DNA of 53,301 nt from a virus (IMGVR_UViG_3300043219_000190:1-53301), one strand, 5' to 3'. Shown: positions 14,825-42,223, counted from the first letter of the stretch. The notes: generated from the letters alone by a model not told the origin. Translations and numbers: made by a program.

Positions 14825-15982
14825 ATGCCAGTACAAGTTAAATCAATAAAAGAAAATGCTCAAAATTCACTAACTGATATAGAGTCAAAAACTAATCAAA
14901 ACACTCCAGAGGTGGACGTTGCATATAATAGAATAGTTGCAAATGCACAAGCTGGTTTAGCTACATTGTGTCAAATCCATAATGTGGATCAAAGAAAAGA
15001 ATGTTTTCCACAAACCGCAACTGAAAAAGTGGGTCTATTATTTTGGGCTGGTTTAGTTAATAGGCCACGTGGTAAAGGTACGCAAGCAGAATTACAAGCA
15101 TTAGCAACAGGAACCGACGGTGTAACTTTAGGCTCTGGTAGTACCGGTCCACGTTGGATCGCAAACAGCGGAATAAACTACACAACTAAAACAGGTGGAT
15201 TAATCTCTGGTGGAAGTGTATCTATAACCGTTTTAGCTAATCAATACGGTGTTGAGGGTACTCTACAAATAGGTGACGAAATAACTTTAACAACTACAAT
15301 CCCAGGAGTTAATACAACCGCCACAATCACAGCAATAAACGTTGTAGGTGCTGAAGAGGAAAACGTGGAAGCGTGGAGATCCGCAATTATACAGTTAGCA
15401 GCCTTCCCACCAAACACTGGAACCTCTTCATGGTTTTTTAACGAAACTATATCAGTACCTGGTATAACTAGATGTTACCCATATGTAAATCAAACATTCC
15501 CGGGACAGGAACTATTATATTGTGTTGCAGATGATAATGTTGACGGAACCCCAACAGCCCCACAATTAGACGCCGTAGAAGATCACTATAAAACAGCAAA
15601 TAAAAATATAATGTGGTCAACCGATCTATTACCGAATGCAGAAAAAAGAATAATAGCTCTAGTTTCACCATTCGACGTTTACGATGTAGTAATAACGGAC
15701 GGAACCCCAGCACTTTCTGCAAGTTTAAAAACCAAAATAGAAGCATCAATAAATAATTATTTCCTAACACGTAACCCATTTATCCTTGGTCTATCCCTAT
15801 TAAATCAAGGCTCAGTCGAAAAAGTAGCAATAACAGCAGTTGCACAAAATACAATCGATGCACAAACAGGAGAAACTGGAAAATTCACAGATATCGGATT
15901 AACTAAACAAGGTTTTCCACCAGAAGATGCATATATACTAATGCCAGGTTATCGGGCTACAGCTAATATTAGTTATACTTAA
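14825..15982 (+). CDS. Baseplate J / Mu gp47-like wedge protein
   Basis: FPQTAT, VGAEEENVEAWRSAI, SVPGITRCY, PTAPQLDAV motifs. Confidence 0.88.
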   Translation: MPVQVKSIKENAQNSLTDIESKTNQNTPEVDVAYNRIVANAQAGLATLCQIHNVDQRKECFPQTATEKVGLLFWAGLVNRPRGKGTQAELQALATGTDGVTLGSGSTGPRWIANSGINYTTKTGGLISGGSVSITVLANQYGVEGTLQIGDEITLTTTIPGVNTTATITAINVVGAEEENVEAWRSAIIQLAAFPPNTGTSSWFFNETISVPGITRCYPYVNQTFPGQELLYCVADDNVDGTPTAPQLDAVEDHYKTANKNIMWSTDLLPNAEKRIIALVSPFDVYDVVITDGTPALSASLKTKIEASINNYFLTRNPFILGLSLLNQGSVEKVAITAVAQNTIDAQTGETGKFTDIGLTKQGFPPEDAYILMPGYRATANISYT

Positions 15983-16015
15983 TTATTGACATTATGATGT
16001 ATCAAGACTATATTT
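15979..16015 (+). promoter_or_regulatory. Promoter, copy 1 of a 37-bp direct repeat
   Basis: TTGACA (15986-91), 17 bp, TATATT; one mismatch to 16429-16465. Confidence 0.85.
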
Positions 16016-16043
16016 TCATTAGGCAGACAGACAGGAGACACAA

Positions 16044-16376
16044 ATGATTTTAAAATTAGGTTACACAGATTTAGACGGTATCAATGTATTTAGGTATGTT
16101 GAAGATTTTACAGAGTTAAAGATTACTCCTTTTTTAACAACTAAATATAAATATAATAAAGAAAGTAATATGGTTATTTACAATAAAAAGCATGATGTTC
16201 AAGGGGTAGACCTTTTATTTAACCCTAAAATATTAGAAGATAACGAAGTTAAAGAAATGAATATTACATACCTTTATTTCTTAGATACTAAAACATCTAC
16301 ATATATTTCATACGCTTGTTTATCTGATTCAGTATTTTTAATGAATGATAACGGTAAAACAATAGATAAATATTAA
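16044..16376 (+). CDS. Moron-type hypothetical protein
   Basis: Own promoter, CAGGAG SD and terminator; ends FLMNDNGKTIDKY. Confidence 0.75.
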   Translation: MILKLGYTDLDGINVFRYVEDFTELKITPFLTTKYKYNKESNMVIYNKKHDVQGVDLLFNPKILEDNEVKEMNITYLYFLDTKTSTYISYACLSDSVFLMNDNGKTIDKY

Positions 16377-16395
16377 AAAAATAAACAGTCTGCTC

Positions 16396-16426
16396 AAACC
16401 CTTTAATCTAATTAGAGGGTTTTTTT
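16396..16426. terminator. Intrinsic terminator
   Basis: AACCCTTTAA/TTAGAGGGTT stem with T run. Confidence 0.8.
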
Positions 16427-16428
16427 AA

Positions 16429-16465
16429 TTAATTATTGACATTATGATGTATCAAGATTATATTT
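16429..16465 (+). promoter_or_regulatory. Promoter, copy 2 of 37-bp direct repeat
   Basis: 450 bp after copy 1; no sizeable plus-strand ORF downstream. Confidence 0.8.
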
Positions 16466-16536
16466 AACCCAGTCATGAAATTCAAAATTTTATTTTCTTA
16501 GTTATCTTGGCACAATACTCTCCTTAATGATTTAAC

Positions 16537-16746
16537 TTAGTACCCGTCACAGGGTACTTTTTTGTTTACAAGGTAGTTTTTATTTAAGTCCTGTAACCAA
16601 GATTCATAACCAAACCATTTAAAATTGTTTTCAATTTGCCTTTTATGAGTATTTTTTAAATTAATTATTGTCGCAATATCCATGTTACAGGATATTGCGT
16701 TATTTAAAGTTTCAGTAAATAGGATTTCTAGTTTCATATTATTCAC
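16537..16746 (-). CDS. Hypothetical cargo protein
   Basis: GTGA overlap with upstream ORF. Confidence 0.55.
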   Translation of the reverse strand: MNNMKLEILFTETLNNAISCNMDIATIINLKNTHKRQIENNFKWFGYESWLQDLNKNYLVNKKVPCDGY

Positions 16747-16919
16747 CTCAGTTCAGAAACAAGTCCACCTATAGCAGAAGGAGTAAACCCATATTTTTTA
16801 TACATCTTCTTAGAAAATACTAGCGTAATTTTATTATTATTCTCCTCTAAAAACTTTTTTATTTCATTTTTCACAACTTCTCTTCGTTGTAATCCATTAT
16901 TAATCCCATATTTATTCAT
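16743..16919 (-). CDS. 58-aa cargo protein (MNKYGINNGLQRREVV...), not in ORF track
   Basis: Hand-translated ORF with AAGGAG SD preceded by UACG hairpin. Confidence 0.7.
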   Translation of the reverse strand: MNKYGINNGLQRREVVKNEIKKFLEENNNKITLVFSKKMYKKYGFTPSAIGGLVSELR

Positions 16920-16942
16920 ATTATCTCCTTACCCCGTAGGGC

Positions 16943-17170
16943 TTATTTGTTAAACCAAGTTGTAGCATCAATATGATTAACTGGATATTCTTTTGATACA
17001 TTACCAAGAACAACTCGAACTAATTCAGTCCCTTTCTTAGATACTCTAAAACCAACTAAATCAAAGTCACCATCACGTATCATCTCTTTTACAGTTTTAA
17101 AATCCGATTCAACAACCTCTTGGCTTAAAAACTCTCTTAATCTGTTTATTTCTTTTCTATTTAACATCAC
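16943..17170 (-). CDS. Hypothetical cargo protein
   Basis: First ORF after leftward promoter, AAGGTGG SD. Confidence 0.65.
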   Translation of the reverse strand: MMLNRKEINRLREFLSQEVVESDFKTVKEMIRDGDFDLVGFRVSKKGTELVRVVLGNVSKEYPVNHIDATTWFNK

Positions 17171-17189
17171 TGTACCACCTTTCCTTATT

Positions 17190-17289
17190 TAACTATCTAT
17201 ATAATACCCTTTATAACTAATCATGTCTACAAAAATAACCAAAATAAACAATCTTTTTTAAATTATTTTTTCATGCTATAATAACCCTT
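17190..17289. promoter_or_regulatory. Divergent promoter module copy 2
   Basis: Minus: TAGACA (17224-29), 17 bp, TATTAT. Plus: TGcTATAAT (17274-82), 7 nt before ATG 17290. Confidence 0.8.
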
Positions 17290-18174
17290 ATGGATAACCT
17301 AATCGAAAAATCATTAAAATCATTATTTCCAACTGGTGAAATTGCATGGGACGGCATGAATAACGGAACCATGAGAGAGATTTCCGACGGTTTAGCAATT
17401 CAAGGTGATCGTGATTATAAAGACGGTAAATCAATAGTTACTGATTTCTACCCAAATACGACCACACTACAAACCGAATGGGAAGAAACATATAAACTAC
17501 CAGCAGGTGAGATATTAACCCCAGAACAGCGAACAGCGCGATTAAATGCCGTTTGGTCACGTGAAGAGGTGGCAAGTTTTGACGGTATGAATCATATGTA
17601 TGAATTATCGGGAATTCCAGTTATCGCACGACCTCTATTACCTAGTGAAGATCCAAGAGTTATTGCAGAAGCCAAACCCGTATTTGATGTTTTTACAACA
17701 GTATTCGATGATGTAGTTTTTGGTGTCGATTCAGTATTCGGGGGATTCTCAGAAATTGAAGCGGAATTTCTCCCAACAATATTTGCAGACGGTCGACCAG
17801 GTGATCCAGCAATTAATTATTTAACAGTTTTCGACGATATAGTTTTCGGAGTAGATTCAGTATTCGGAGACTTTGAAGGTTCAAGAGTAGATCCGCCACA
17901 ATTAACAATTCCAGATGAAACTTGGACATGGCCTATGATCTATATAATAGAAGGACTAGACGGTGAATTTGCAGAAATACCAATCGAATTAAAAGATGCA
18001 TATGAATTTTTAACATATAAAAATAAACCCAATTTTATGTGGGCAATATCGAGAGTTGTATTTTTTGAAGAACCAATTCCAGTATTTAACGAAAATATAG
18101 TAACAGACGATGGGTTTACATTTGTCACAGATGATGGATTCAATATAGTAACACAAACCACGGAGGAAATTTAA
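17290..18174 (+). CDS. Mu gp48/YmfQ-like baseplate protein with internal repeats
   Basis: LKSLFPTG.IAW, P.TT..LQTEWEE...LP, EQRTARL, terminal KP motif. Confidence 0.8.
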   Translation: MDNLIEKSLKSLFPTGEIAWDGMNNGTMREISDGLAIQGDRDYKDGKSIVTDFYPNTTTLQTEWEETYKLPAGEILTPEQRTARLNAVWSREEVASFDGMNHMYELSGIPVIARPLLPSEDPRVIAEAKPVFDVFTTVFDDVVFGVDSVFGGFSEIEAEFLPTIFADGRPGDPAINYLTVFDDIVFGVDSVFGDFEGSRVDPPQLTIPDETWTWPMIYIIEGLDGEFAEIPIELKDAYEFLTYKNKPNFMWAISRVVFFEEPIPVFNENIVTDDGFTFVTDDGFNIVTQTTEEI

Positions 18175-18175
18175 C

Positions 18176-18895
18176 ATGGCAGATAAACCATTCAAAAGTA
18201 CATCATATGATGCAGCGCAGGACATAACAGAAGCACAGGACGGTTTTTTAATCGAGCAACCGTCATTCGCTGGAGTACGTAAACAAACATGGATTCTATT
18301 TTCATCAGTAAGAGCATGGATATTAACATTTTCCGAATTCGCCCAAATGACATATAATAAAAGTGCAATTGCTGCTAATAAAAATCAAATTGAAAACAAT
18401 AAAGGTGAAATTGACGGGCATAGTGTTGATATTAATAATAATAGTAATGCTATTAATAGTAATGTTACCGATATTGGTAATAATACTACTGCGATTGGTG
18501 TTAATGCTGGAAATATTTCTGATAATGATACCGATATTGGTAATTTACAAAATAAAACACCACAGAGCTATAAAACAACTGATGCTGTTGAATTTGTCAG
18601 TGTTAAAAGTTCAGTTTATTTTATCGAAGAGTCATCTAAGATTGCTGGTGATATATATGATGAAATGATAATATCAGTATTGAAAGATGTGGGAGATATC
18701 TGTATAGTATCTGGAACCGCAAATATTTCTGGTCTTAGAAGAAATATTTCATTCATGGAAAGAAAAACCTCTACACAGATATATGTTTACACTTATAACC
18801 ATGACTCTGGGGCTCTTATTACCGTGATTATTAATTCAGCTAGTGCATCAGTATGGTCTAATGTATTATTTTGCACTGGAATACATAAAGTATAA
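18176..18895 (+). CDS. Fibre-like virion protein with trimeric coiled coil
   Basis: About nine I-x-x-N-x-x-x heptads followed by a beta-rich head. Confidence 0.55.
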   Translation: MADKPFKSTSYDAAQDITEAQDGFLIEQPSFAGVRKQTWILFSSVRAWILTFSEFAQMTYNKSAIAANKNQIENNKGEIDGHSVDINNNSNAINSNVTDIGNNTTAIGVNAGNISDNDTDIGNLQNKTPQSYKTTDAVEFVSVKSSVYFIEESSKIAGDIYDEMIISVLKDVGDICIVSGTANISGLRRNISFMERKTSTQIYVYTYNHDSGALITVIINSASASVWSNVLFCTGIHKV

Positions 18896-18903
18896 AAGAT
18901 CAC

Positions 18904-19383
18904 TTAATAAAATAATTCATCAAAACTATAGCTATACTTGACATCACTATCAACCCTACGTCCTGTTTGTGGTTCAATTAAGTCACCGTTTGATAATTGA
19001 ACCACAGCATGATTTGCATTTCCACCTTCGATAATTGTTCTAGAATCCTCAATTAGTACTAAGTTAGCTTTTTCCCCTTTTTTTACATAAAGAATATTTA
19101 TATATAGTATAGCGAAATCTTCACAATCACCACTTTTGTTTAAAAAAGTTTCTTCAGGTGACTGAAATTCATCTCTAATGTCGACTTTATATTCAATCAT
19201 ATGCCTTAATTTAAACCCTAAGTTAAAGTAAGTGCTAAAATCAGGAAGATAATCACTGGCATATATTTCTAAACTACCATCATTTATGCGTTCATATATT
19301 AAAGAATCAATCCTCATGCTAGAACTTTCCAATTCACATCCCATAAACAAAATACAAAAAACAGTAATAATAATCTCTTTCAC
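18904..19383 (-). CDS. Lipoprotein with transglutaminase-like Cys-protease domain
   Basis: Start probably GTG 19383 after GGAGGGG; signal ...ILFMG-C; GDCEDFA and HAVV motifs. Confidence 0.8.
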   Translation of the reverse strand: MKEIIITVFCILFMGCELESSSMRIDSLIYERINDGSLEIYASDYLPDFSTYFNLGFKLRHMIEYKVDIRDEFQSPEETFLNKSGDCEDFAILYINILYVKKGEKANLVLIEDSRTIIEGGNANHAVVQLSNGDLIEPQTGRRVDSDVKYSYSFDELFY

Positions 19384-19399
19384 AATAAACCCCTCCAAC

Positions 19400-19495
19400 A
19401 TATCTACAGAATACCATCAATACTAACTAATGTCTATAACATACACCATTAAATACAATCTTTTTTAATTATATTAATCATGCTATAATAAAAGT
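19400..19495. promoter_or_regulatory. Divergent promoter module copy 3
   Basis: Minus: TAGACA (19431-36), 17 bp, TATTCT. Plus: TGcTATAAT (19481-89), 6 nt before ATG 19496. Confidence 0.8.
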
Positions 19496-19915
19496 ATGAT
19501 TAATATAACAAATAACACCCAATATAACGGCGAACCAGCAATAATAAACGGCGATGTAGTTAAAAACGGCGGTGATTATAAAAGAGTAACAGCCCTAAAT
19601 AATAAAATACTAATCTTGGTCGGTACAGATTCAGGTTATTGGGGTAATTTAATCGAACCTGTTAACTCTCAAATAAAAGGCGGTCTAGAATTATTAAAAG
19701 GGCGTGCGATCACATCAAACTTTTTAAAAGAACATACCCAAAAAGTAGAATCGTTATTAAGTCCCATGATTACAAGTAAACAGGCAAAAAGCGTAAAAGC
19801 AGAATCATTTAATAGATTTGCTGATCGTGTAGATTGGACTGCGTTAATTGTTTTAAAAGATGGACAGAAGTATTATTTTGAAAGTAGTACAGGTGAAGGA
19901 AAATTTATTAATTAG
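19496..19915 (+). CDS. Mu gp46-like baseplate wedge protein
   Basis: GYWGN, L.PMI....AKSV pattern; size. Confidence 0.7.
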   Translation: MINITNNTQYNGEPAIINGDVVKNGGDYKRVTALNNKILILVGTDSGYWGNLIEPVNSQIKGGLELLKGRAITSNFLKEHTQKVESLLSPMITSKQAKSVKAESFNRFADRVDWTALIVLKDGQKYYFESSTGEGKFIN

Positions 19916-19938
19916 TAAATAAAAGGAGATATATAGTT

Positions 19939-20214
19939 ATGGCAAATAATCCACAATTCCCAGTGAATTTAGTTAAAGAAACTTGGACAAAAATAGCAAC
20001 TGGAGTATTAACAGGAACAATTTACAACCGAAAAACTACAGTCGGGTATTTTCAAACATTTAGAGTGACAGGAGATCCAGCACCAACGGATTTAAACGAA
20101 GGGGTATCTATGTTTTTAGAACATCCAGATTACGAACCAATAGGAAGTGATAGTCCTATAGACGTGTGGGTTTTCTGTCGTGGTAAAGATGGAATTTTAA
20201 GGGTAGATCTATGA
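19939..20214 (+). CDS. Small beta-rich putative virion protein
   Basis: AAGGAG SD; in late unit. Confidence 0.5.
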   Translation: MANNPQFPVNLVKETWTKIATGVLTGTIYNRKTTVGYFQTFRVTGDPAPTDLNEGVSMFLEHPDYEPIGSDSPIDVWVFCRGKDGILRVDL

Positions 20215-20747
20215 TAGGAAACGGCGGAATAAACATAAAACCATTACCTGCAGATGATGCAATTTATCAGGCTTTGGACACTGTGGGGGATGGTTCAGGA
20301 GCCACAAATCAGGCTGTAAACGGTAGTTCAACCCCTGTTAAGTTTTTAATAAAACCTCCCGTTACAGAAAAATATATTCTAAAAAGATTAAATTTACATG
20401 CAATAGATTCAAATTGGAACAATGCAGGTTTTTATGGTGCTATTGCACTATTAGCAAACGGAATTAGAATATACATTGAAAATGATGAGGGTATTATAAA
20501 AGAATATACCAGTAATTTTAAAATACAACGAACCCATGATTGGGCGCTATTAGCTGGTGCAGATGTTACGACAATAGGAAACGCCGGAGCCGATCCCTTG
20601 GTTGTAAGGTGGACATTCGCAAGTGGTTACTCAAATATCACTCTTGACGGTTCTAAAAATGAAAGATTTGTTATGGAAATACCCGATAATCTATCAGGAC
20701 TTGATTATCAAGTTGCAACCGTTCAAGGAGGTAAAACCTTATTATGA
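20211..20747 (+). CDS. Putative virion accessory protein
   Basis: ATGA-coupled; AVNGSSTPVKF motif. Confidence 0.5.
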   Translation: MIGNGGINIKPLPADDAIYQALDTVGDGSGATNQAVNGSSTPVKFLIKPPVTEKYILKRLNLHAIDSNWNNAGFYGAIALLANGIRIYIENDEGIIKEYTSNFKIQRTHDWALLAGADVTTIGNAGADPLVVRWTFASGYSNITLDGSKNERFVMEIPDNLSGLDYQVATVQGGKTLL

Positions 20748-21298
20748 TTGGCAACGGTAAATTTTCACCTGTAAAATCTATAATTCCTGGTTCAAACGTA
20801 ACATCTAATATAACCGTGGAACTTATTAAAAAAGGTTTTATGTATACTGTTCAAACTGTAATTACTGGATTAACAGTGGATTCTGTAAAAAACTTTTATC
20901 TTGATCCATCAGCATTCACAGGGGATTTTTTAGTTATTTATGAATTATCTTATGCAGTTTCACAAGGCAAAGGAGTTGGTGAAATTTTTGTCACGGGGGA
21001 TTATGAACAGGGAACACTTCTTTCTGCATTTAATAGAAACGAAAATTCTTCAAATACTCCTCAGTCTAAAATTTCAGTAGATCCAACAATAAACGATCTA
21101 GGAGTAGGGACTTTTAAATATTTAGCAGGTTCAGAAGCACAAGGTAATAATTTAGGTGGTGGCGGCTTTAAAGGAAATCCAGATTTCCCACTAGAAGTAA
21201 ATAAAACACTGGACAGAATATTTAGAGTAACACAATCAGGCGGTTCTGGAACTTATGACCTAGAATTAAGACTTGTATTCGCTGAAATAACCGTTTAA
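20744..21298 (+). CDS. Putative virion accessory protein
   Basis: ATGA-coupled; same MIGNG start as previous gene. Confidence 0.5.
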   Translation: MIGNGKFSPVKSIIPGSNVTSNITVELIKKGFMYTVQTVITGLTVDSVKNFYLDPSAFTGDFLVIYELSYAVSQGKGVGEIFVTGDYEQGTLLSAFNRNENSSNTPQSKISVDPTINDLGVGTFKYLAGSEAQGNNLGGGGFKGNPDFPLEVNKTLDRIFRVTQSGGSGTYDLELRLVFAEITV

Positions 21299-21299
21299 T

Positions 21300-21329
21300 C
21301 TTGACATACGACAAGACCTGATATATATT
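21300..21329 (+). promoter_or_regulatory. Promoter with dyad operator CTTGAC-N4-GACAAG
   Basis: TTGACA (21301-06), 17 bp, TATATT, ATG 6 nt later; operator recurs at 26984 and 47068. Confidence 0.8.
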
Positions 21330-21335
21330 TAATGT

Positions 21336-21590
21336 ATGGACAAAGAATTAATATTAGGTACAGATTATGAAACTATAGATTCTATAATTAAAAAAACCAG
21401 TCTAAAAACTAGACAGGCAATTAATTATAGAATCCAAGTTTTAAAGAAAAGAGGTGTCGTCATAGAATCGTTATACAATAATCGTGGAGTATATTGGTTA
21501 AGAAAAGACGCCGACAAAATTATGAATATTAAATTTACAAAGAATAGGAGCAACAATGTCACTAAATCCAAAAATGTTAAAAGAGTGTAA
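21336..21590 (+). CDS. Small HTH DNA-binding protein
   Basis: TIDSIIKKTSLKTRQAINYRIQVL helix-turn-helix pattern. Confidence 0.6.
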   Translation: MDKELILGTDYETIDSIIKKTSLKTRQAINYRIQVLKKRGVVIESLYNNRGVYWLRKDADKIMNIKFTKNRSNNVTKSKNVKRV

Positions 21591-21876
21591 AGATGTAATT
21601 TACTTAAATTCAAATTTACCAGAATCAGTAGTAGAACCCGTTCATGCAGTAGTTAAGACAATTATAGCTATGGAGTATAGTTATGAGGATTTCTTATCTA
21701 GAGAGTTGTGTGGTACCAATACCCGTGCAAATGTAATTAGAGAGTTAATCCTTGCACATGGTGGATCTATTCACAGTTTTGATGAATGGTTTTTACGTTA
21801 TGAAGGCGATGGATTAACAATGTCTCAAAAAATAGGTGGTGAAGAACCTGTAGTATTAGGTGCATGGGAAGCGTAA
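21556..21876 (+). CDS. Hypothetical protein
   Basis: AGGAG SD, overlaps HTH gene. Confidence 0.65.
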   Translation: MSLNPKMLKECKDVIYLNSNLPESVVEPVHAVVKTIIAMEYSYEDFLSRELCGTNTRANVIRELILAHGGSIHSFDEWFLRYEGDGLTMSQKIGGEEPVVLGAWEA

Positions 21877-22521: not shown

Positions 22522-22522
22522 A

Positions 22523-22552
22523 TAGACAATACAGCCTAATATGTTGTATAAT
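22523..22552 (+). promoter_or_regulatory. Candidate lysis-cassette promoter
   Basis: TAGACA, 18 bp, TATAAT. Confidence 0.55.
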
Positions 22553-22590
22553 AATTTAATTAACAAGTTAATATTAGATAGTCCGATTAC

Positions 22591-22630
22591 GTCGGGTTAT
22601 TTGTTTTTAACAGTAGCCCGACTTTTTTAT
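22591..22630 (+). terminator. Intrinsic terminator/attenuator ahead of lysis genes
   Basis: GTCGGGTTA...TAGCCCGAC stem followed by a T run. Confidence 0.8.
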
Positions 22631-22649
22631 TTAAAGGGGTTATTACAGG

Positions 22650-23183: not shown

Positions 23184-23200
23184 AATAGGAGTCGGACACT

Positions 23201-34008: not shown

Positions 34009-34032
34009 AAAATAGCCCCGTTAAGGGGGCTT
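34009..34032 (-). terminator. Hairpin terminator
   Basis: AGCCCC-cttaac-GGGGCT followed by ATTTT on minus strand. Confidence 0.6.
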
Positions 34033-34230: not shown

Positions 34231-34268
34231 TATCTACAGAATACCACCAATATTAACTAATGTATATA
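34231..34268 (-). promoter_or_regulatory. TAGACA-class promoter variant
   Basis: Three mismatches over 38 bp to 19401-19438. Confidence 0.75.
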
Positions 34269-34270: not shown

Positions 34271-35854
34271 TTAACTACATTTAATCTGCTTTTTTGCGAA
34301 ATGTGTCCATGAACTTTTAAAATCCATACTTCTTTGAATTCTGAATAATAAAGTTACATCTATTATATTTGTGTTTTGGCGTAACTTGTAATAAATCCAA
34401 AATGGTAAATTCCTTTTAGTCGTCAACGTCCTCCCAATCTCTTTTAATGCTTCAATGTCATTGTCAACTATCGCTTTACTGATTGTTTTATTGACTGCGG
34501 TTTTATCCTCTTCTGATCGGTCTTTTAGTGGGACTGGTGCGGTTAATTCGACAAGTTCGCCGTCCATGTTTTTAATCATTTTAACTTTTTTCTTTGGTTT
34601 TAATTTATCTGCTCCACATTCCTCGCACTGGACTTTCCCTATTGGGATTAAAGCATAACACAGTGGGCAAACGTGTTCCTCTCCTGTACCGACTGGTTTT
34701 TTGTTAAACTTGGTACTGTGAAAATTCCATTCTATATCGTAATAAATATTGTATTCTGGGAAGCACCTAAAATTCCCAACAAGATCTAAATAAACAGCGT
34801 AATCTTTACCTTCTGCCATTCGTGTGAATCTACCTGTTTTCTGTCTCTGTAGACTCCTTGACGGTGTTGGTTGGATATCTACACCCATTCTCAAATCTAC
34901 AATATCAACACCTTTTTGAACCATTTTACAAGTGATTAAAACCTGTGTCTTTTTTGTATTGAAGTTTTTCATAACTTTTCTACGCTGTTTTGGTGTTAAT
35001 GTTCCCTCTAAAACTTCTGCAGTATATCCGTGAGAATGTAAAATTGTTTCCATTTCATAACAGGCAGATACATTTCTACAGAAAAATAAAATATAATCCT
35101 GTATTTCTGGGAATTTCTGCATTTCTGTTATTGCGTTCCCGAAAGTTCCACGGTCTTTTAATAATTTTTCAATTTCTTTATCTTTAAAATCTCCACCTGC
35201 AATATGTAGATCCTCAACACCTTTTAATGGGATACTGAAATATCTAATTAATGATAAATGTCTAATTTTATCTGTACCGCCTAAACCATTATCCTCTTCT
35301 ACCCCATCGGTTAAATCCCACATTGTAACAGGTGATTTTAACATTACATCATAGATCCCATTACCTGACTCTCTGGATAATCCTTTTCCATTTGTTTGTT
35401 CACATGATGCGGAAACACCTAATATCTTTGTGGTTGGGTGTGCTTCAAATAAGTCCATATATCTTGGTGCTGTGGTAATGTGTGCTTCATCTGCAACAAA
35501 AAAAGCTGGTTCCCTTTTTGGTGGGTGTTTAGATAAAGTCTGTACAGTACAAACATGAATTTGTACGTCTCGACCTTCTTTATATCCTGCCCCTATAATA
35601 TCATGGCTAATATTTGTTACTGCTAAATGGTCGCTAAACTGGTCGAGCAGGAAAATTTCATCCACTAAAAAATATAAATGCCTATCCGTATTCCATTTCC
35701 TATTAAACTTTAAAAAAGAATCTACAATATCGGCAAGTATTACACTTTTACCTGCTCCTGTTGGTGCTTCAGCTAAAACCGCCCTGTTAGTTCTAAATGC
35801 TTCTCTTATGTTATCAAATATAGTTTGTTGGTATGGTCTTAGTTTGTATTTCAT
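34271..35854 (-). CDS. SF2 DEAH helicase with C-terminal Zn ribbon
   Basis: LRPYQ, APTGAGKS, DEAH, SAS, GVD, QKTGRFTR, CPLC...CEECG. Confidence 0.93.
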   Translation of the reverse strand: MKYKLRPYQQTIFDNIREAFRTNRAVLAEAPTGAGKSVILADIVDSFLKFNRKWNTDRHLYFLVDEIFLLDQFSDHLAVTNISHDIIGAGYKEGRDVQIHVCTVQTLSKHPPKREPAFFVADEAHITTAPRYMDLFEAHPTTKILGVSASCEQTNGKGLSRESGNGIYDVMLKSPVTMWDLTDGVEEDNGLGGTDKIRHLSLIRYFSIPLKGVEDLHIAGGDFKDKEIEKLLKDRGTFGNAITEMQKFPEIQDYILFFCRNVSACYEMETILHSHGYTAEVLEGTLTPKQRRKVMKNFNTKKTQVLITCKMVQKGVDIVDLRMGVDIQPTPSRSLQRQKTGRFTRMAEGKDYAVYLDLVGNFRCFPEYNIYYDIEWNFHSTKFNKKPVGTGEEHVCPLCYALIPIGKVQCEECGADKLKPKKKVKMIKNMDGELVELTAPVPLKDRSEEDKTAVNKTISKAIVDNDIEALKEIGRTLTTKRNLPFWIYYKLRQNTNIIDVTLLFRIQRSMDFKSSWTHFAKKQIKCS

Positions 35855-35857
35855 ACC

Positions 35858-36424
35858 CTACATTTCCCCTCTTAAATCTAAATCATCAAACCAAGTTAAA
35901 CCAGTTTTAGTATTATTTTCTGAATCCCAGATGAACCAGCAATACATAGTATTACCACCACGTTTATTTTTGGATAGATCAAATTTAGGACTCATTTTAA
36001 TAATACCGACATATTCTGGTACATCCTGCCACTCTTTTTGTATACATAAATAATTCGATGCAACATGTGGAATTAGTGCGAAAACATATCTGGCTTGTTT
36101 CCGTGCCTTTTTTACAAACTTATATTTATTTGAATATGGTGGATTGAAAGTTATTACATCATAATTATTTTTATGTAATAAAAAATTCCCTCTTTTCTTT
36201 CCAAAATATCTATCAAAATAAGTTATATTATAAAAGACGTTTTTAAGACCTTTCCAGATTCTGCCATTTTCACCGCTACATGGATCCAATACTTTTAAAT
36301 GTTTATATTCTGGGATATTTTCTTTTATCCAGTCTGCTAAAGCATCGATCATAAAAGGGTGTGTTTCTACGTGATCTATGGTTTTTTCTAGTGGTGTTTT
36401 TTTAGTTCTGATTAGTGATTTCAT
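35858..36424 (-). CDS. DNA adenine (amino) methyltransferase
   Basis: ETHP, LDPCSGENG, NPPYS, YCWFIW. Confidence 0.85.
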   Translation of the reverse strand: MKSLIRTKKTPLEKTIDHVETHPFMIDALADWIKENIPEYKHLKVLDPCSGENGRIWKGLKNVFYNITYFDRYFGKKRGNFLLHKNNYDVITFNPPYSNKYKFVKKARKQARYVFALIPHVASNYLCIQKEWQDVPEYVGIIKMSPKFDLSKNKRGGNTMYCWFIWDSENNTKTGLTWFDDLDLRGEM

Positions 36425-36564
36425 GTTGTGTACCCATCTTTTAAATTATTGAGCTGAGTACGCATTTTTTTATATTGAGTCATGTATAAACCGTTTAATC
36501 CATGGGTTTTCATAAACTTTGAAATTCTCTCTTCTAATCGTTCTATTTTTATTTCTGTTGCCAT

Positions 36565-37131
36565 CTACCCCTCCAACCCAAAACCAACACCGCCACATTC
36601 TGGGCAATCTTTAACAGGAATCCATTCTACAATGACACCTTTTTTATAGATCGGCTCCCAATTATCCCAGCAAGTAGAACATTCTCTAGCTAAGTAATGA
36701 ATCCCATTTATTGATTTTAACCAGTTTCTAAAGTTTTTCTGGTTTGGTTTTAATTTTGCATTTCCTGTTTTGCACTCTATTCCTGTTAGGATAGGGATAT
36801 GTTTTGTATTTACTGGACATTCTTTACAGTTATGATTAAATAAACACTTTCCGTTATCATCTCTTAAATACCAACAGAGAGAATAATAATTTTCCCCCAA
36901 TAAATCAGTACCGCCACTACCCTCTTTTTTAGATGGAATACCAGCATTTAGAGGTCTATAATTTTGTAGTGTTACTGTTCCGTTTTTAAACTCTGGATCA
37001 TTTCCAGCCCAACCGATTCCAGATGTATTATTAAATAATTTAGATCCTGGATTGTCTTTTTGATATGTTCTGCGGACTAATTTTACTAATCTGGCGTGTC
37101 GGATGTGTGGGGTTAGTTTTGGTTTTTTCAT
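36565..37131 (-). CDS. VRR-NUC-like PD-(D/E)XK nuclease with Cys-rich inserts
   Basis: LFNNTSG, GGTDLLG, GIECKT...KLKPNQKNF..W....GI. Confidence 0.8.
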   Translation of the reverse strand: MKKPKLTPHIRHARLVKLVRRTYQKDNPGSKLFNNTSGIGWAGNDPEFKNGTVTLQNYRPLNAGIPSKKEGSGGTDLLGENYYSLCWYLRDDNGKCLFNHNCKECPVNTKHIPILTGIECKTGNAKLKPNQKNFRNWLKSINGIHYLARECSTCWDNWEPIYKKGVIVEWIPVKDCPECGGVGFGLEG

Positions 37132-37441
37132 TTATATCTTTCTCCCTATTTTTAATTCAAGAATACCGTCTCTTTCGTCCCATTCCGCCGAAATAAGCCC
37201 AAAACGTCCTTTTATTAATTTAGAGGATAATTCAACCTCAAAATATTTTTGTATCTCTGTTTTATATCGCAATGTCTCGCAAAATTTTAAAATATCATCT
37301 GTAACATGCATATAAAAAGTTGATGTTGTTTCTAAATTAAAACTGATGCTATTATCAAATCCATAAATGGGTTTGATTTCTCTTTCATCTATTTCTACTG
37401 TAAATTGTCCATGTAACATGTTTTCTCTCCCAAGGGGCATT
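37132..37441 (-). CDS. Hypothetical protein (start uncertain)
   Basis: ORF in early operon. Confidence 0.5.
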
Positions 37442-37455
37442 ACACCCCATAACAA

Positions 37456-38382
37456 TTAAAATAATGCTTTAATATCGTTCTCTTTACCGATAACAGTTTT
37501 TTTATTATTTTTCAGTTCATCTTTTAATGTTTCTGTACCTGATTTCTGTTCAATAACTTCCTCGTTATTATTATAGAATTCCTGTTCAACGTCTGCAGCG
37601 TCGTCGTGATCTTCTAAAATATGGGAATTATCAATCAATTGGTTTTGTTTTATCATATCTACGGAACCGCCCAACCGTAGTTGTTTTTGTGTTGCTGCTT
37701 CTAACTGTAGCTTTGTTGTATCTCCAGCATATACAATATTAACAACTTTTACTTTGCCGTGTTTCTCGGTCTGTTTTTCGATTAGTTCCATTTTTAACGG
37801 GATTCCAAATAATACACCACCAGTAATTAGTTTAATTGTTTCTAATGATGATAAAATATTAATAATTGAGTTCCAAGAGTGAGTTCTAAACTTAGCTACC
37901 CCGCCGATTTTTGCAGACTGTGGAATCATGCAAGATAATATTCCAGATGGTTTACAGGCTTTACTTAATGCAAATTCACACGTTTCGGGATTACAGTCTA
38001 CATTATGGTAGATTGGAGGATCTAAGATTTTACCGTTATCATCTTTAGTTTTAATTCTGCTTGCTGTTTCACCATCTCCACGACATGCACAAGTTTTACC
38101 GGTATATAACTGGTATGCAGTCATGAAGTTTTTGTCGGGATCATCTGAGAGTAGCATTATATCAAGTGATTTTGGTTCTTTACCGACTTGGTCCATAATA
38201 ACCTTATCTATAATAAAATTATCGTTTTTATCTTTGTCTAATCCAGTTACTACAAAATGATTAAATTTAACAGGTAATCGGTATTTATTACCGCCCTGTC
38301 CTGTTTTCTCTTTTTCAGAATGTCCACCTATTTTAATTTTGTGGGTTTCTACTAATCTTCTGGTTAGGTTTTTAATTGCCAT
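37456..38382 (-). CDS. Gp3-like (recombination directionality factor-like) protein
   Basis: KIKIG, P.KFNHF, CRGDGE, C...C......CKP.G.L, F.THSWNS motifs. Confidence 0.8.
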   Translation of the reverse strand: MAIKNLTRRLVETHKIKIGGHSEKEKTGQGGNKYRLPVKFNHFVVTGLDKDKNDNFIIDKVIMDQVGKEPKSLDIMLLSDDPDKNFMTAYQLYTGKTCACRGDGETASRIKTKDDNGKILDPPIYHNVDCNPETCEFALSKACKPSGILSCMIPQSAKIGGVAKFRTHSWNSIINILSSLETIKLITGGVLFGIPLKMELIEKQTEKHGKVKVVNIVYAGDTTKLQLEAATQKQLRLGGSVDMIKQNQLIDNSHILEDHDDAADVEQEFYNNNEEVIEQKSGTETLKDELKNNKKTVIGKENDIKALF

Positions 38383-38536
38383 GACTATTTTACCTCTCTA
38401 TATTTAGAACAGGTATGCTCTCTTTTATTTTTTAAACAAAAAACAAAACCTCTAACTGTCGAATCAATACATCTAATACATTGACCGCCTAAATCTTTAC
38501 CGCTTTGGCAATTACCACATTTTTTATCTTTCATAA

Positions 38537-38752
38537 CTATTTATCCCCTCTTTTAATTAATAATTTAACATCCGCTTTAATTACCCCAATCATGCAACCA
38601 CCACCAGCTCTACGCCCTTTACAGTCCTTTTTTGTGCATTCGTCACAAACTGTATAAGTTTTTCCGTTCTGATCGATGAAAGAACCGATATCCTGTGTTT
38701 TTAAGTTAGCTCTGTACTTTTGGTACTCTTGTAGTATTTTGTCTTGTTTCAT
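38537..38752 (-). CDS. Small Cys-rich protein
   Basis: CDEC....C.......C. Confidence 0.55.
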   Translation of the reverse strand: MKQDKILQEYQKYRANLKTQDIGSFIDQNGKTYTVCDECTKKDCKGRRAGGGCMIGVIKADVKLLIKRGDK

Positions 38753-38755
38753 TGT

Positions 38756-39172
38756 CTACTCCTCTTCCTCTTCTGTAAAATCCGCAAAATCAACATTCCA
38801 TTTGCTAATTTTCCCATCTTCTTCTATATCCATAATTATATAATCACCATATCCTGATTCTTTAGGACACATCATTTTAGGAACATAACCATCTATTTTA
38901 ACAATCTCTGTAAAATGGAGATCTAGCAAAGAATAAATACCAGCATCACAAATCTTAAAATGAATACTTGCCTTATTGCCCTTATCCCAATTAATAATAA
39001 TTCCACTATCAACATCAATAACAGGTTCCCATTGATCACCATTTTGACAGGGGAAATTATCACAATTTTCTAAAACTTCTTTACCGTTTAATTCTGCATT
39101 ATTCCAATACCGAACTTCTACTGATGCTTTTAAAAATTTAACATCAAACTCTTTTGTAATTTTCAATTCTAT
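38756..39172 (-). CDS. Conserved phage protein
   Basis: VRYW, W.P.IDVD.G.I.NW, HFKICD.G.Y, GYGDYI motifs; start approximate. Confidence 0.6.
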   Translation of the reverse strand: MELKITKEFDVKFLKASVEVRYWNNAELNGKEVLENCDNFPCQNGDQWEPVIDVDSGIIINWDKGNKASIHFKICDAGIYSLLDLHFTEIVKIDGYVPKMMCPKESGYGDYIIMDIEEDGKISKWNVDFADFTEEEEE

Positions 39173-39182
39173 TTTCACTTCA

Positions 39183-40604
39183 TTATTCCTCCACATTCTT
39201 AGTCATAGTCAATCGTGCTTTACCTTCAGTCTCTTCTACAATTCCGTTTTCATAAAAGAAATTATACATTTCTGGTCTGTTTTTTTGGATTGTTTTGATA
39301 TGAGAATCTTTTGATAATAATTTAGATAACTTTAATGATTTAAGAAATTTAATACTATCTTTGTCAACCTCCATTATTAGTGCATCAATTAAATCACTAT
39401 TTACATCAACTTTTTCAATTTGTTTTTCTGTTAATAAAAGATCCCCCATAATATCCAGAAACGACGTTTTTTTCATTTCTTCATATAATTTCGGGCTATT
39501 ATCTTTTGCGGTATCGACCATTTTAGCACTGATTTTTGTTGATTTTCTTGGTCGGGAGATTGACGCTAATTTTCTTGCACCAGCATAAATGTTTAGTTTA
39601 TGATCTTCATTACCCTCTTTTACATTTTTCTTGGAATACTCGATTTGAATTAAACCAGCAAAACTATTTTTAATTTCGTAAATACGATCCTGCATTGATT
39701 TAATTTCATTTTCGGTTGAACACTTTTCGTCCCATAATCCAATCATTGCAATATGACGCTCTTTAGTAAATAATTCCTCTTCCGTGCAACCTTCATTTTT
39801 AGCGATCGGGCTACCATCTAACTGAATTTCACCTTCTGGAGATGCGAATAACCATTTAATATCATCATAACCGTTAATTGGTGGTGCTATTGATTTAAGA
39901 ATGTTTTCATTCCAGAAATAAACACATTGTTTTACTATTTCATTTTGGAGTTCTAAGTCTGCTTTTATGTAGAATTCATTGTAGTAGCCTAAATCTTTTA
40001 ACATTTTTGCAAAAACGAAAAGGTCGCCTCGTTCACCGTCAGGATATAATATAGATTCAAATTCCAGATCTACCCGATACCCCATTTTTTCCCACTCAGC
40101 TGGTGGTTTAGGAAATACAAGTGCGTTTAAATCTGTTTTGAATGTGTTAGATAATAACATTTGGACTTGAATTTGAATCATATAGCCTTTATCTATCATA
40201 TCAGATCCAGCGTCACCCCAACCCATTTTAAAAGCCATATCGAAAATAGTTTTGTTTTCTTGGTTTATAGTTTCACTGTTTACAATTGTTTGACCATCAA
40301 TATGGCAAGTAATAAATGGATAATCTGGATGAACAAAGGCTTTTTCTCTGTTTATCACATTTCCTTTTAAATCACAGATAGAATTTTCAAAAGATAAACC
40401 AAATCTTAATGATGCATGTTTTGAGTCTAATGGTTCCAAAAAAGGGTCAATTCTAACTGGTGTTGTATAGCCATTTTTTGCACAAAACCCAGGTTCTAGC
40501 TCTTCTTTAATTTCTAGCCATGCACGTAATGGTGATTTATATTTATTACAACCTAATATTGCAGAAATACGACTAGCACTTAAATTACTTGGTGTTGATC
40601 CCAT
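39183..40604 (-). CDS. YqaJ/lambda-exonuclease-like recombinase with long C-terminal extension
   Basis: SAS.ISAILG.NKYKSP, G..FE, HIDG, ENKT, Y.IQIQ.QM. Confidence 0.88.
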   Translation of the reverse strand: MGSTPSNLSASRISAILGCNKYKSPLRAWLEIKEELEPGFCAKNGYTTPVRIDPFLEPLDSKHASLRFGLSFENSICDLKGNVINREKAFVHPDYPFITCHIDGQTIVNSETINQENKTIFDMAFKMGWGDAGSDMIDKGYMIQIQVQMLLSNTFKTDLNALVFPKPPAEWEKMGYRVDLEFESILYPDGERGDLFVFAKMLKDLGYYNEFYIKADLELQNEIVKQCVYFWNENILKSIAPPINGYDDIKWLFASPEGEIQLDGSPIAKNEGCTEEELFTKERHIAMIGLWDEKCSTENEIKSMQDRIYEIKNSFAGLIQIEYSKKNVKEGNEDHKLNIYAGARKLASISRPRKSTKISAKMVDTAKDNSPKLYEEMKKTSFLDIMGDLLLTEKQIEKVDVNSDLIDALIMEVDKDSIKFLKSLKLSKLLSKDSHIKTIQKNRPEMYNFFYENGIVEETEGKARLTMTKNVEE

Positions 40605-40651
40605 TATTCACCGCCCTTTTTAAATTCTTCTTTATACGTTTTATCCAACAT

Positions 40652-40936
40652 CTACCCCTCCCCCCGATTAAAAGCACTTTCAAGCAATGCTCTTTTTTTT
40701 GCTAATTTAGACAATCTTTCAGTATCTAAAATTTTAGTATTATCAATAAGTAAATCCATTTCAAAGAGTAAATCTTTCCAAATCTGTTTCATCTCTCTAT
40801 TATTATCAACATACTCTTTTAAGATGATACCGACTTGATCGCCGACCGCCCGTCTGTTGTGGGGTAATTTAGCAATGTTCTTTAATTTACCCCAAATTGT
40901 TTCGTCTATTGTTATGTATTTTTTTATTAATGCCAT
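40652..40936 (-). CDS. Arc-like ribbon-helix-helix protein
   Basis: KYITIDETIWGKLK..A....R....QV..IL.EYV. Confidence 0.6.
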   Translation of the reverse strand: MALIKKYITIDETIWGKLKNIAKLPHNRRAVGDQVGIILKEYVDNNREMKQIWKDLLFEMDLLIDNTKILDTERLSKLAKKRALLESAFNRGEG

Positions 40937-41113
40937 ATTATAGAACCTCCTTTAATATCTTTTTAGCTTCAACAACATCATTCTCCATGGTCGAACTCAT
41001 ATCACTACAATATTTATACATAGGACAGCCTGGGCAACTATCTACAGCACTACAATTATTTAATGCTACTAATTCTTCTATGTGTTTTTTATATTTTTTA
41101 TCCACTTTTCCCC

Positions 41114-41365
41114 CTAAAACCTAATCGCTTGCAACTTATGTTGCTTTTCAATTAATTCTTTTAACCATTCGTCCCGTAGTTCTGATGCTTTTGACATTAG
41201 TTCTATTTTTGAACAAGAGACGTAATAATTTTGGTTGTATTGTATAACCTCATTTTTTAAATCATGTCGTTCTATAAATTCCATCATTATAGAATCTTTA
41301 CTAATAGTAATGATTTGTAACTTGCTTTCTTCTTTATTAAAATATAATCCGTGTTTTTCTGGCAT
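41114..41365 (-). CDS. Hypothetical protein
   Basis: GGAGGG SD after promoter. Confidence 0.6.
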   Translation of the reverse strand: MPEKHGLYFNKEESKLQIITISKDSIMMEFIERHDLKNEVIQYNQNYYVSCSKIELMSKASELRDEWLKELIEKQHKLQAIRF

Positions 41366-41386
41366 AATGCCCTCCCTGTGTAACTA

Positions 41387-41415
41387 ATAATAAATTATTA
41401 ACAGGATAATGTCAA
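41387..41415 (-). promoter_or_regulatory. Consensus promoter restarting the early operon
   Basis: TTGACA, 17 bp, TATTAT. Confidence 0.75.
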
Positions 41416-41440
41416 GATATTGAGATTTTAAATGAGAGTA

Positions 41441-42223
41441 TTATAGTTTTTTGAATGCCTGAGTTAAGGATTTATCAAGTTCTTTACCGTAGATAGTGTC
41501 TATTTCGGTTTGTGTGAATGATTTGGAGGATTTGTCCATCCAGTTTGTGGGGTTTCTTTTTTTGTTTACTGAGTCTTTTTTTGCGTAGATTTTTTTTAAG
41601 TGTGGATATTGTCCACCGCTTAATGATGCACTTGAAAATTGGTACATACCTTCGTTAAATGAATTGGTTGGGTTTGGGATATTGTCGCCTTTTTTAATGT
41701 AGATTAGTTGGTTACTTTTTGGCATTGCGTAATGGCTTAGATATAATTTACGAATTGCAAAAAGTGAGTTTGAATTTGCAGATTGTGGTTTTAATACTTC
41801 AATTTTATTACGTCTAAAATTCCTTTTAATAACCTTATCTTTATTCTGGGATGGGTAGGCGTGTTTAGTTGGGATCATTCCGTTATGTTTAAAACCGTCC
41901 TCTTGTTTGACTAGAAAATCTAAATCGGTAGCACCCTTTTTAGCTGGAGCTCCCCATCTTGATTCTATTTTATTTAGGTCGTGATGTGGTTTGGAATTCT
42001 TGAATTTTAGAACTCCTTTACCTGGACCATTGCCGACCAGGTATTTATTAGATAGTGTAAATTCCTTTTTAAATTGTTGGTTTGATCTCTTCAGCCCTTT
42101 ATATGCAACTTTGTTAGCTGTTCCACTTAAAGCAAATCTGGTTGAATCTGGTAGAGCTTGATTAAAGTATTTCTCTACTTTTTTTTGGTTTTTAATTGTT
42201 GCGGTGAAGTTTTTTGTGGCCAT
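41441..42223 (-). CDS. Basic protein, probable tail completion/neck protein (gpZ-like)
   Basis: ALSGTANKVA...F.L.NKY pattern; preceded by the TGnTATAAT-6nt-ATG promoter used by structural genes. Confidence 0.5.
   Translation of the reverse strand: MATKNFTATIKNQKKVEKYFNQALPDSTRFALSGTANKVAYKGLKRSNQQFKKEFTLSNKYLVGNGPGKGVLKFKNSKPHHDLNKIESRWGAPAKKGATDLDFLVKQEDGFKHNGMIPTKHAYPSQNKDKVIKRNFRRNKIEVLKPQSANSNSLFAIRKLYLSHYAMPKSNQLIYIKKGDNIPNPTNSFNEGMYQFSSASLSGGQYPHLKKIYAKKDSVNKKRNPTNWMDKSSKSFTQTEIDTIYGKELDKSLTQAFKKL

Follow-up and report, generated by a model that had tools for sequence, protein, structure and literature searches.

The gene order of contractile tails is among the most conserved features of phages, and annotation pipelines and module-based classification depend on it. 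What is to be made, then, of a phage whose baseplate genes are spread over 27 kb and both strands? The question is raised by IMGVR_UViG_3300043219_000190:1-53301, a stretch of 53,301 bases that is the whole IMG/VR record and is called the window below. It is nearly the whole genome of an uncultivated marine-sediment myovirus, in which a lambda-type head module is joined to a contractile tail of the Mu/P2 type. A sequence-only reading had seen in positions 14825-42223 a Mu-type tail operon that was scrambled and yet intact. We hold with good confidence that the layout is real and inherited: the baseplate wedge genes follow the tape measure protein (TMP) gene rightward, a spike-like gene stands last in that direction, and the hub genes, together with a minor tail gene here called X, read leftward.

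Are the genes what they were taken to be? All eight open reading frames (ORFs) named in the sequence-only reading exist, at the positions and on the strands given for them. As for their identities, those of the gp47-, gp44- and gp43-like genes are firm and those of the gp48-like, gp46-like and fibre genes moderate, while the labels gp45 and tail completion are not established.

The rightward series begins with the TMP gene (12767-14803, +; PF10145, 4.8e-31; phrog_28, 9e-47). It is followed by the gp47 / P2 gpJ-like wedge gene (14825-15982, +; PF04865, 2e-16; phrog_6, 2.7e-24), which is confirmed as gp47/J: its product passes the Baseplate_J family PF04865 with 60.5 bits against a gathering cut-off of 21.1, over residues 75-316. 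The J protein is 52-59% identical to its counterparts in the related contigs G001-G003 and 81% identical to that in contig L031. The next two assignments are of moderate strength. The gp48 / P2 gpI-like wedge gene (17290-18174, +; phrog_203, 1.2e-6) matches Mu gp48 with an hhalign probability of 89.7 (E 1.8e-6), over the N-terminal 79 columns only. The gp46 / P2 gpW-like wedge or sheath-initiator gene (19496-19915, +; phrog_180, 2.7e-5) has no Pfam match and aligns with Mu gp46 over 82 columns (probability 77, E 1.9e-5). Both genes adjoin the J gene in every relative.

The 48-like gene has some peculiarities of its own. Its middle region holds a tandem duplication (17697-17741 / 17823-17867, 87% identical, 126 nt apart), the same region carries Cys-rich CG..CG motifs in the relatives, and the product ends in a C-terminal extension of ~30 amino acids (aa).

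On the opposite strand, the gene at 31568-32851 (-) is confirmed as gp44-like, a fusion of an N-terminal LysM domain (4.3e-8) to a hub protein of the gp44 / P2 gpD type (phrog_177, 1.3e-19). The family Gp44-like_2nd (PF22255) reaches 26.5 bits, just below its cut-off of 27, and a profile of seven gp44 sequences aligns with Mu gp44 over 262 columns (hhalign probability 96.4, E 1.2e-9). The gene at 27922-29247 (-) encodes the gp43-like hub or DNA-circularisation protein (phrog_184, 3.8e-17, full length). By tblastn it is 22-27% identical, over 98-99% of its length, to the "DNA circulation protein" genes of phages Scuro and PY6. The window protein itself has no Pfam match, and its direct hhalign comparison with Mu gp43 gives a probability of only 48 (E 1.9e-4). 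Its family comprises 45 database proteins, of which the 25 on long contigs were aligned; PF07157 is found in one of these 25, the most distant member P0045 (2.8e-13), which itself matches the query at E 4.8e-18 with 99% coverage. The gene is confirmed as gp43-like. The sequence-only reading had left room for the minus-strand genes not being gp43 and gp44 homologues, and the family matches speak for a gp43-like and a gp44-like gene.

Both hub genes overlap small ORFs upstream, as had been proposed, by 4 nt in the case of gp43 (ORF 29244-29522) and 11 nt in that of gp44 (ORF 32841-33221). The claim that the genes are intact also holds, their lengths matching those in the relatives: the gp43-like protein has 441 aa against 443-447 in its family, and the gp44-like protein 427 aa against 425-431.

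The third leftward gene, X (41441-42223, -), encodes a minor tail protein, with phrog_4688 matched by 14 of 16 family members (best E 7.5e-12), and it is linked to gp44 in G002 and L022. Its proposed role in tail completion is an unproven candidate label taken from neighbours in the Atlas alone: the template-modelling (TM) scores to one cluster, in which PF06763 or PF20039 is present in 11-12% of the members, are 0.62/0.76, and across the neighbours 11-16% of the members carry Minor_tail_Z (PF06763) or DUF6441 (PF20039). Searches in Pfam gave no match, whether to the tail-completion families of lambda gpZ (PF06763) and P2 gpS (PF05069) or to any other, in the 16 family members or in 21 distant homologues; the latter were chosen from 31 matches of an exhaustive profile search, the ten omitted being close relatives (six), long proteins rich in repeats (two) and fragments (two). 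By hhalign, X gave no signal against lambda Z, P2 S, Mu G or Mu K (probability <1). The family profile found no PDB sequence at E up to 1, and the AlphaFold model was poor (predicted local distance difference test, pLDDT, 57.6) and yielded nothing usable from BFVD.

The spike-like gene, of the gp45 / gpV class of central spikes, lies on the plus strand and is placed by family, structure and synteny. It probably runs from 27113 to 27670 (185 aa) rather than from 27050 to 27670, and in the relatives the rightward arm ends with its homologue. In the alignment of 30 of its 31 homologues (P0071 was dropped), PF18352 (9.5e-21) and PF06890 (0.0022) are each matched by one member, and the window protein has no Pfam match. 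A model with pLDDT 76.8 finds central spikes as its top Foldseek matches, namely those of the PVC, the Mu baseplate (chain V, 9ki1_V), the AFP and the R2 pyocin, at weak E values of 4e-3 to 1e-1. Its BFVD matches include VgrG and gp5-OB names, and VIA-align recognises only a generic OB fold in the N-terminal part (Z ~6). Comparison with Mu gp45 by hhalign gave no signal (probability 0.2), and the family profile matched no PDB sequence at E up to 1. The evidence is weak and mutually consistent; it points to a spike-like protein only, and the gp45 label is not established.

Is the arrangement perhaps created by the assembly? The window is a linear metagenomic contig, and three to five copies of a repeat of 47-91 nt lie beside several of the junctions; a chimera or a mis-join at these elements could in principle have broken up the single collinear tail operon of a real phage. 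The repeat copies are only 63-85% identical and shorter than 100 nt. The sequence-only reading had asked for a check on misassembly at the repeats, and a Logan contig made by a different assembler (34,520 nt, depth 320) provides it: 14000-33999 is spanned in one piece, with no gap and 0 differences. The sole public run with this DNA is a DNA run that may be the source sample, so that the reads are not independent. The relatives weigh more heavily: the same convergence of the 45-like gene on the 43-44 pair is found in eight of nine informative contigs from other samples. An artefact is, with this, hardly credible.

These relatives had to be found with the gp43 alignment, as a single-protein scan of viral contigs revealed no close ones. 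The alignment-based scans gave 10 distinct contigs on which a gp43-like gene is present, L018 and G001 being one and the same; three relative contigs were taken whole, and every window protein was mapped onto all of them by tblastn. In the eight contigs with the convergent layout (G001, G002, G003, L016, L017, L019, L021 and L023), at 38-70% protein identity, the 45-like gene stands on the opposite strand just beyond the end of gp43. L022 is the exception on this far side of gp43, and L020 ends inside the gene. On the near side, all seven informative contigs have gp44 upstream of gp43 and on its strand, and the distance between the two ranges from an overlap to ~0.45 kb, as against 2.3 kb in the window. 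L031, a contig also labelled G004, has no gp43 match because it ends before that region, and it says nothing on the hub genes. The proposal that this is a stable reorganisation and not decay is borne out by the eight contigs.

The gene orders vary around this theme. In G002 the TMP, 47, 48 and 46 genes are followed at some distance by the fibre and 45 genes, and X, 44 and 43 stand contiguous on the other strand (15731-19191). G001 has the same plan, with X 3.7 kb upstream of 44 and an 88-aa ORF between 44 and 43. In G003, L017 and L020 a helicase gene stands just upstream of 44. L016 has X, an exonuclease, a Gp3-like gene and then helicase, 44 and 43, an order matched by the window, which adds genome-specific insertions.

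In the window the three tail-matching leftward genes (41441, 31568 and 27922) are scattered among replication genes, and the earlier placement of them inside the early arm proved accurate, since they sit among helicase, exonuclease and SprT-like genes. Genes that stand apart from the other tail genes, in unrelated company, might be the remnants of a second element, such as a tailocin, a satellite or the tail module of another phage. This explanation has next to no likelihood: the lengths of gp43 and gp44 match those of the family, the searches of the window revealed no further hub, gp43-like or X-like gene, and every long relative has the minus-strand genes together with the same wedge genes.

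From which order did this layout arise? The sequence-only reading had started from that of Mu, in which genes 42 to 49 follow each other on one strand. This does not appear to be the right point of departure. In L022, the sheath, tube, TMP, 47, 48, 46 and 45 genes are followed by X, 44 and 43 and then by large ORFs, with X on the minus strand and everything else on the plus strand; the whole clade, L022 included, has TMP-47-48-46-45-X-44-43, and the collinear order TMP-43-44-45-46-47-48-fibre is absent from the window and from all related contigs. Because the order 47-48-46-45-X-44-43 is common to L022 and the convergent clade, the departure from the Mu order predates the strand switch. The history that follows would begin with an ancestor that already had this non-Mu order on one strand. 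A single inversion of the terminal X-44-43 block would have carried it to the far end of the leftward replication arm, with X alone inverted in L022. In a subclade, a helicase and recombination genes would later have come between X and 44. Lastly, in the present genome, cassettes would have entered at five places (chaperone-TMP, 47-48, 48-46, fibre-45 and 44-43), giving the 27-kb extent. As the assembly of the virion is independent of gene order, such a layout is viable and can be inherited.

One inversion of X-44-43 seems the most economical reading, though its polarity, judged from a single outgroup, is not proven. Could the convergent layout instead be ancestral, or the hub genes have moved by separate transpositions, so that L022 is the derived form and the single inversion never took place? 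This is unlikely, if not negligibly so. L022 is the only outgroup, with a gp43 identity of 34%, and the inversion of X relative to 44-43 in it means at least two events in any scenario. The genes upstream of 44 also vary, from a phrog_1029-like gene in G001 to X in G002 and the helicase in G003, L016, L017 and L020. On the other hand, L022 and the convergent clade have the 44-then-43 order in common, and the more distant, cultured Scuro, SppYZU01 and Mu all have their tail genes on one strand, which means that a one-strand ancestor needs fewer events. A single inversion from such an ancestor is the history that we prefer.

The extent of 27 kb has another origin. What had been read as scrambling of the tail genes over this distance is mostly the result of moron-like insertions specific to this genome, not of shuffled tail genes. 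Extra DNA relative to the relatives occupies 11966-12766, 15983-17289, 18176-19495, 25595-26947 and 29244-31567. In G001-G003 the TMP, 47, 48 and 46 genes are contiguous, and the gaps between them in the window are therefore insertions. Almost none of the ORFs in the extra DNA has a counterpart in the relatives (E <1e-5); only a transglutaminase-like gene, which L017 has at another place, and some ORFs with partial matches in L031 depart from this. In their make-up the inserts resemble self-contained cassettes, with small minus-strand ORFs behind a predicted promoter and Shine-Dalgarno site, hairpin terminators and two lipoprotein-like genes.

The insertion between 47 and 48 (15983-17289), absent from G001-G003 and L031, holds ORF 16044-16376, terminators, the minus-strand ORFs 16743-16919 and 16943-17170, and the second copy of the promoter element described below (17194-17284). 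As a scar, a direct repeat of 43 nt (15973-16015 / 16423-16465, 93% identical), which is a near-consensus TTGACA-17-TATATT promoter (15986, 16436), flanks ORF 16044-16376 and its terminator. Related promoter copies are seen at 21301 (+) and 47054 (-), where they form an inverted repeat of 33 nt with 85% complementarity. The 48-46 insertion consists of ORF 18176-18895 (+), ORF 18904-19383 (-) and the third element copy (19401-19491), and the fibre-45 insertion (25595-26947, -) of three ORFs without counterpart in the relatives, among them a lipoprotein gene (25773-26735). The two lipoprotein-like genes, 18904-19383 (-) and 25773-26735 (-), form opposite-strand islands in the structural arm, and each product has a signal peptide and a lipobox Cys. 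The first is transglutaminase-like and the second has a long acidic repeat; they are possibly cargo (moron) genes, with superinfection exclusion as a candidate role.

The block of 2.3 kb between 44 and 43 (29244-31567, -) is found in this genome only. It contains a leftward promoter (31532-31567), small ORFs, and genes for a helix-turn-helix (HTH) protein (29943-30221, -) and YopX (29551-29946, -). The junction at which the YopX stop overlaps the gp43 start is present twice, as direct repeats of 26 nt (29228-29253 / 29535-29560) with 96% identity; they share the first six gp43 codons and flank a Cys-rich ORF of 92 aa (29244-29522, -). This duplication at the start of gp43 looks like the scar of a recent insertion.

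How could genes separated in this manner be kept expressed? By the reading given here, each fragment would have a predicted promoter of its own. For this purpose, only motifs that are repeated and fixed in position were interpreted. An element of 91 nt occurs three times, directly before the TMP, 48-like and 46-like genes (12672-12762, 17194-17284 and 19401-19491), and two further copies, limited to its first 47 nt, immediately follow the stop codons of gp44 and of the helicase gene. In the leftward direction, the part common to all of them has the sigma-70-like form TAGACA-17-(TG)nTATTnT, which in copy 1 is TAGACA-17-TATTGT, and in five of five copies it is followed, after ~20 nt, by a GGAGG-like site and then a start codon. 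The five ORFs behind these leftward promoters were tested for mutual homology and showed none; with unrelated ORFs downstream, the repeat is a promoter family and not a gene family. One copy (31532-31567, -) heads the unit that ends with gp43. Another (34231-34266, -) lies just downstream of the helicase stop and is followed by an ORF of 54 aa (34040-34204) and a terminator (34014-34031). Both gp44 and gp43 would in this way stand at the end of a leftward unit headed by a TAGACA-17-TATTnT copy.

Read rightward, the three full copies have the form CTTTTTT-N16-(CATGC)TATAAT, with a start codon 6-7 nt further on. In copy 1 this part, CTTTTTT...TGCTATAAT, ends 7 nt ahead of the TMP start codon; the start codons of the 48-like and 46-like genes stand 7 and 6 nt after TGCTATAAT, respectively, and that of gene X stands 6 nt after TGATATAAT (42230-42238). 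The strict motif TGnTATAAT has 10 sites in the window, and the four with an ATG at 6-7 nt are exactly those of TMP, 48, 46 and X. With a looser box, an ATG follows 6 of 27 sites, compared with a mean of 1.2 and a maximum of 4 in first-order Markov simulations. The promoter triad before TMP, 48 and 46 is also present in L031 (7640-7768, 11185-11313 and 13829-13957), a contig from another sample, in which a terminator hairpin and no inserted gene lies between J and the 48-like gene. Across the window and L031, CTTTTTTA-N16-TATAAT-N6/7-ATG is kept in six of six cassette copies. A -10 box that ends 6-7 nt before an ATG places the predicted transcript start at the start codon, and the motif thus predicts that TMP, 48, 46 and X are transcribed as leaderless mRNAs.

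Several points weigh against the reading as a whole or against parts of it. All of the promoters, terminators and leaderless starts are predictions, and a generic sigma-70 scan is not enriched over shuffled sequences (98 against 96 expected, and 101 against 90). The leaderless box was sought in G001, G002, L016, L017, L020 and L022 and found in none of them. A terminator-like hairpin at 34014-34031 stands between the promoter at 34231 and gp44, and the ORFs leading to gp44 follow this hairpin. In the leftward units of gp44 and gp43 the promoters resemble common ones of the host type, unlike the class before TMP, 48, 46 and X; since the classes differ, co-regulation of hub and wedge is not shown. 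The direction of the rearrangement rests on L022, a lone outgroup contig, and the convergent state could be the older one. The assignments of X and of the spike are weak. Finally, with a CheckV completeness of 81%, further tail genes could lie off the contig.

The two promoter classes lead to another question: is there a functional reason for the split? The hub and DNA-circularisation proteins might have been recruited to early or middle expression, either because they act early or in order to have hubs built beforehand, with the wedge being made late. In L017 the gp44 start codon comes directly after the helicase stop, with no spacer (L017:39-2222), which suggests that a replication gene and a hub gene may be co-transcribed there; the helicase is also just upstream of gp44 in the window, L016, G003 and L020. 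The host-type promoters of gp44 and gp43, in place of the TGnTATAAT-ATG class, would suit such a recruitment. It is opposed by G003, which carries TGCTATAAT-N6-ATG directly at gp44, and by G002, in which a stretch of ORFs on the other strand stands between the X-44-43 group and the replication genes; both of these point to a separate late unit. It is also opposed by gene X, which lies in the same arm and has the leaderless box. We therefore regard this explanation as quite improbable.

A broader scheme would have two baseplate programmes, with the hub expressed early or middle from units of the replication arm, and the wedge, TMP and X through the leaderless promoter class. The two-way cassette would then be a portable device that lets opposite-strand cargo enter the tail operon without silencing the genes downstream. 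This scheme is a speculative one, with the chances clearly against it.

How unusual is the layout among known phages? Less so than the sequence-only reading had implied. In P2 (AF063097), the hub genes (U and D) already belong to another operon than V, W, J and I, which encode the wedge and spike: the F operon comprises FI FII E E' T U D and the V operon V W J I H G, and the non-essential, opposite-strand genes orf30 and fun(Z) lie between operons. R and S, for tail completion, are part of the O operon. Each P2 operon is headed by an activator site and a late promoter; such activator sites were not seen in the window. Transcription of the V operon is annotated as starting with the first base of the coding sequence of gene V, which makes the transcript leaderless, a likeness to the window that on the side of the window is predicted only. 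Of the features of the P2-type split, the window has the separation and the opposite-strand inserts, and its repeated promoter stands before TMP, 48, 46 and X, not before 43 or 44. The differences are also clear. The P2 tail operons all share one reading direction, with the hub genes placed after the TMP gene, whereas in the window it is the wedge genes that come after it, and the hub genes read the opposite way among replication genes; the head and replication modules are unrelated. A recent preprint on the structure of P2 describes gpD as hub, gpU as tube initiator, gpX as glue, gpJ and gpI as wedge, gpW as sheath initiator and gpV as spike, and states that tail gene order is conserved among P2 relatives (10.64898/2026.09.14.750843).

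The comparison with Mu (AF083977) gives homologous gp43-, gp44-, gp46-, gp47- and gp48-like parts in a different order, namely 42-47-48-46...45, followed by 43, 44 and X in inverted orientation. The notion that the Mu tail genes form one operon needs correction as well, as there is a late promoter inside Mu gene 43. Further differences from Mu are the N-terminal LysM domain of the window gp44 and the lambda-type terminase, portal and protease, and no Mu transposase or Mu-type head gene was seen in the family searches of the window. The nearest cultured matches of the gp43-like protein are those of Scuro (Acinetobacter) and SppYZU01 (Shewanella), 24-28% identical over the full length. Both phages also have TMP, 44, 47 and 48 homologues, and unlike the window they keep them on one strand in a 43-44-...-47-48 arrangement: 43, 44, then 46, 47, a 48-like gene and the fibre in Scuro, and TMP, 43, 44, then 47 in SppYZU01.

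Separation of hub and wedge is also familiar from T4, in which the two sets of baseplate genes lie in clusters apart from each other and late transcription starts from many individual promoters. T4 is, to be sure, a phage of 169 kb with a late sigma factor of its own and a much more complex baseplate. In the literature, as far as it was accessible, no paper on inverted or split hub genes in tails of the Mu/P2 type came up, and absence of such work is not claimed. All in all, the layout varies a theme that P2 already shows, that of split tail operons, and it leaves known principles unchanged.

What can be learned from it is mainly practical. Annotation by position can fail, as hub genes that are inverted, embedded in a replication arm and stably inherited would be missed. 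A tail operon can tolerate the repeated insertion of cargo cassettes when each of the downstream fragments has its own promoter. The TGnTATAAT-N6/7-ATG starts are a concrete prediction of leaderless late transcripts, and this conserved promoter class, together with a possible early expression of the hub genes, is what would be most worth testing.

The remaining genes of the rightward arm concern the fibre and lysis. For a plausible tail fibre gene (24335-25156, +), the Atlas gives a feature score of 0.96 to clusters with the tail-fibre domain Gp53-like_C. In G001, G002, L016 and L031 no more than the N-terminal ~75-157 aa are kept, and this conserved N-terminus with a variable C-terminus, a pattern typical of fibres, also supports the reading. 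The protein has no Pfam or PHROG match, and a search of PDB sequences gave one chance-level match. The probable lysis cassette (22650-24335, +) comprises a coiled-coil protein that has a membrane helix in its C-terminal part, an M23 peptidase (23201-23683, +; PF01551, 1.8e-16) and two small proteins recognised by hydropathy, one of 68 aa with one membrane helix and one of 149 aa that is spanin-like. Upstream it adjoins a gene for a membrane protein (21877-22521, +) with ~5 predicted helices and a weak C-terminal match to sigma-70 region 4 / HTH, conserved in L031; together with the products of 21336-21590 and 29943-30221, it is a candidate phage regulator. A terminator-like hairpin, found by the hairpin scan, closes the rightward structural arm (25571-25588, +).

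The two arms are well defined, with a GC content of ~0.33 and strand skews that flip near 25-27 kb. The rightward arm (83-25563, +) has matches to a gpA-type large terminase, a lambda-type portal, an S49 protease, sheath (phrog_165), TMP, Baseplate_J, two weak "wedge" families and the M23 peptidase. The leftward arm (51545 down to 25595, -) has a primase-polymerase, a C5 methyltransferase, an HNH endonuclease, SSB, the SprT-like protein, the YqaJ exonuclease, Gp3-like, the helicase and YopX. Family matches define the replication and recombination block between X and gp44 (34271-40604, -), which is common to the window and L016; it includes the helicase (34271-35854, -), a methyltransferase-like gene (35858-36424, -), the Gp3-like protein (37456-38382, -; PF18897, 3.5e-39, "recombination directionality factor-like"), which L016 and G003 also have, and the YqaJ exonuclease (39183-40604, -). 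No integrase was seen in the window, and no tRNA genes were found in it.

Which organism might be the host? LysM, the M23 peptidase, the spanin-like protein, lipoboxes, sigma-70-type boxes and GGAGG/Shine-Dalgarno sites are evidence, not proof, of a bacterium, probably one with two membranes. Scans of species-representative genomes with the gp43 alignment found no prophage relatives, and the gp44 alignment gave one weak match of 27 residues in a Verrucomicrobiota metagenome-assembled genome (MAG), which is not enough to name a host. Among the close relatives of the gp43-like protein, P0021 and P0034 carry the source names of Pacearchaeota and Helarchaeota MAG proteins. They prompted the idea of an archaeal virus, which was rejected in view of LysM, the M23 peptidase, the sigma-70-type boxes and the Shine-Dalgarno sites; the two are probably from phage contigs binned with archaea. 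Lastly, the window carries a GIY-YIG (SegE-like) homing endonuclease gene (52359-53231, +) and a small HNH endonuclease gene (46065-46316, -), which are consistent with a heavily mosaic genome.

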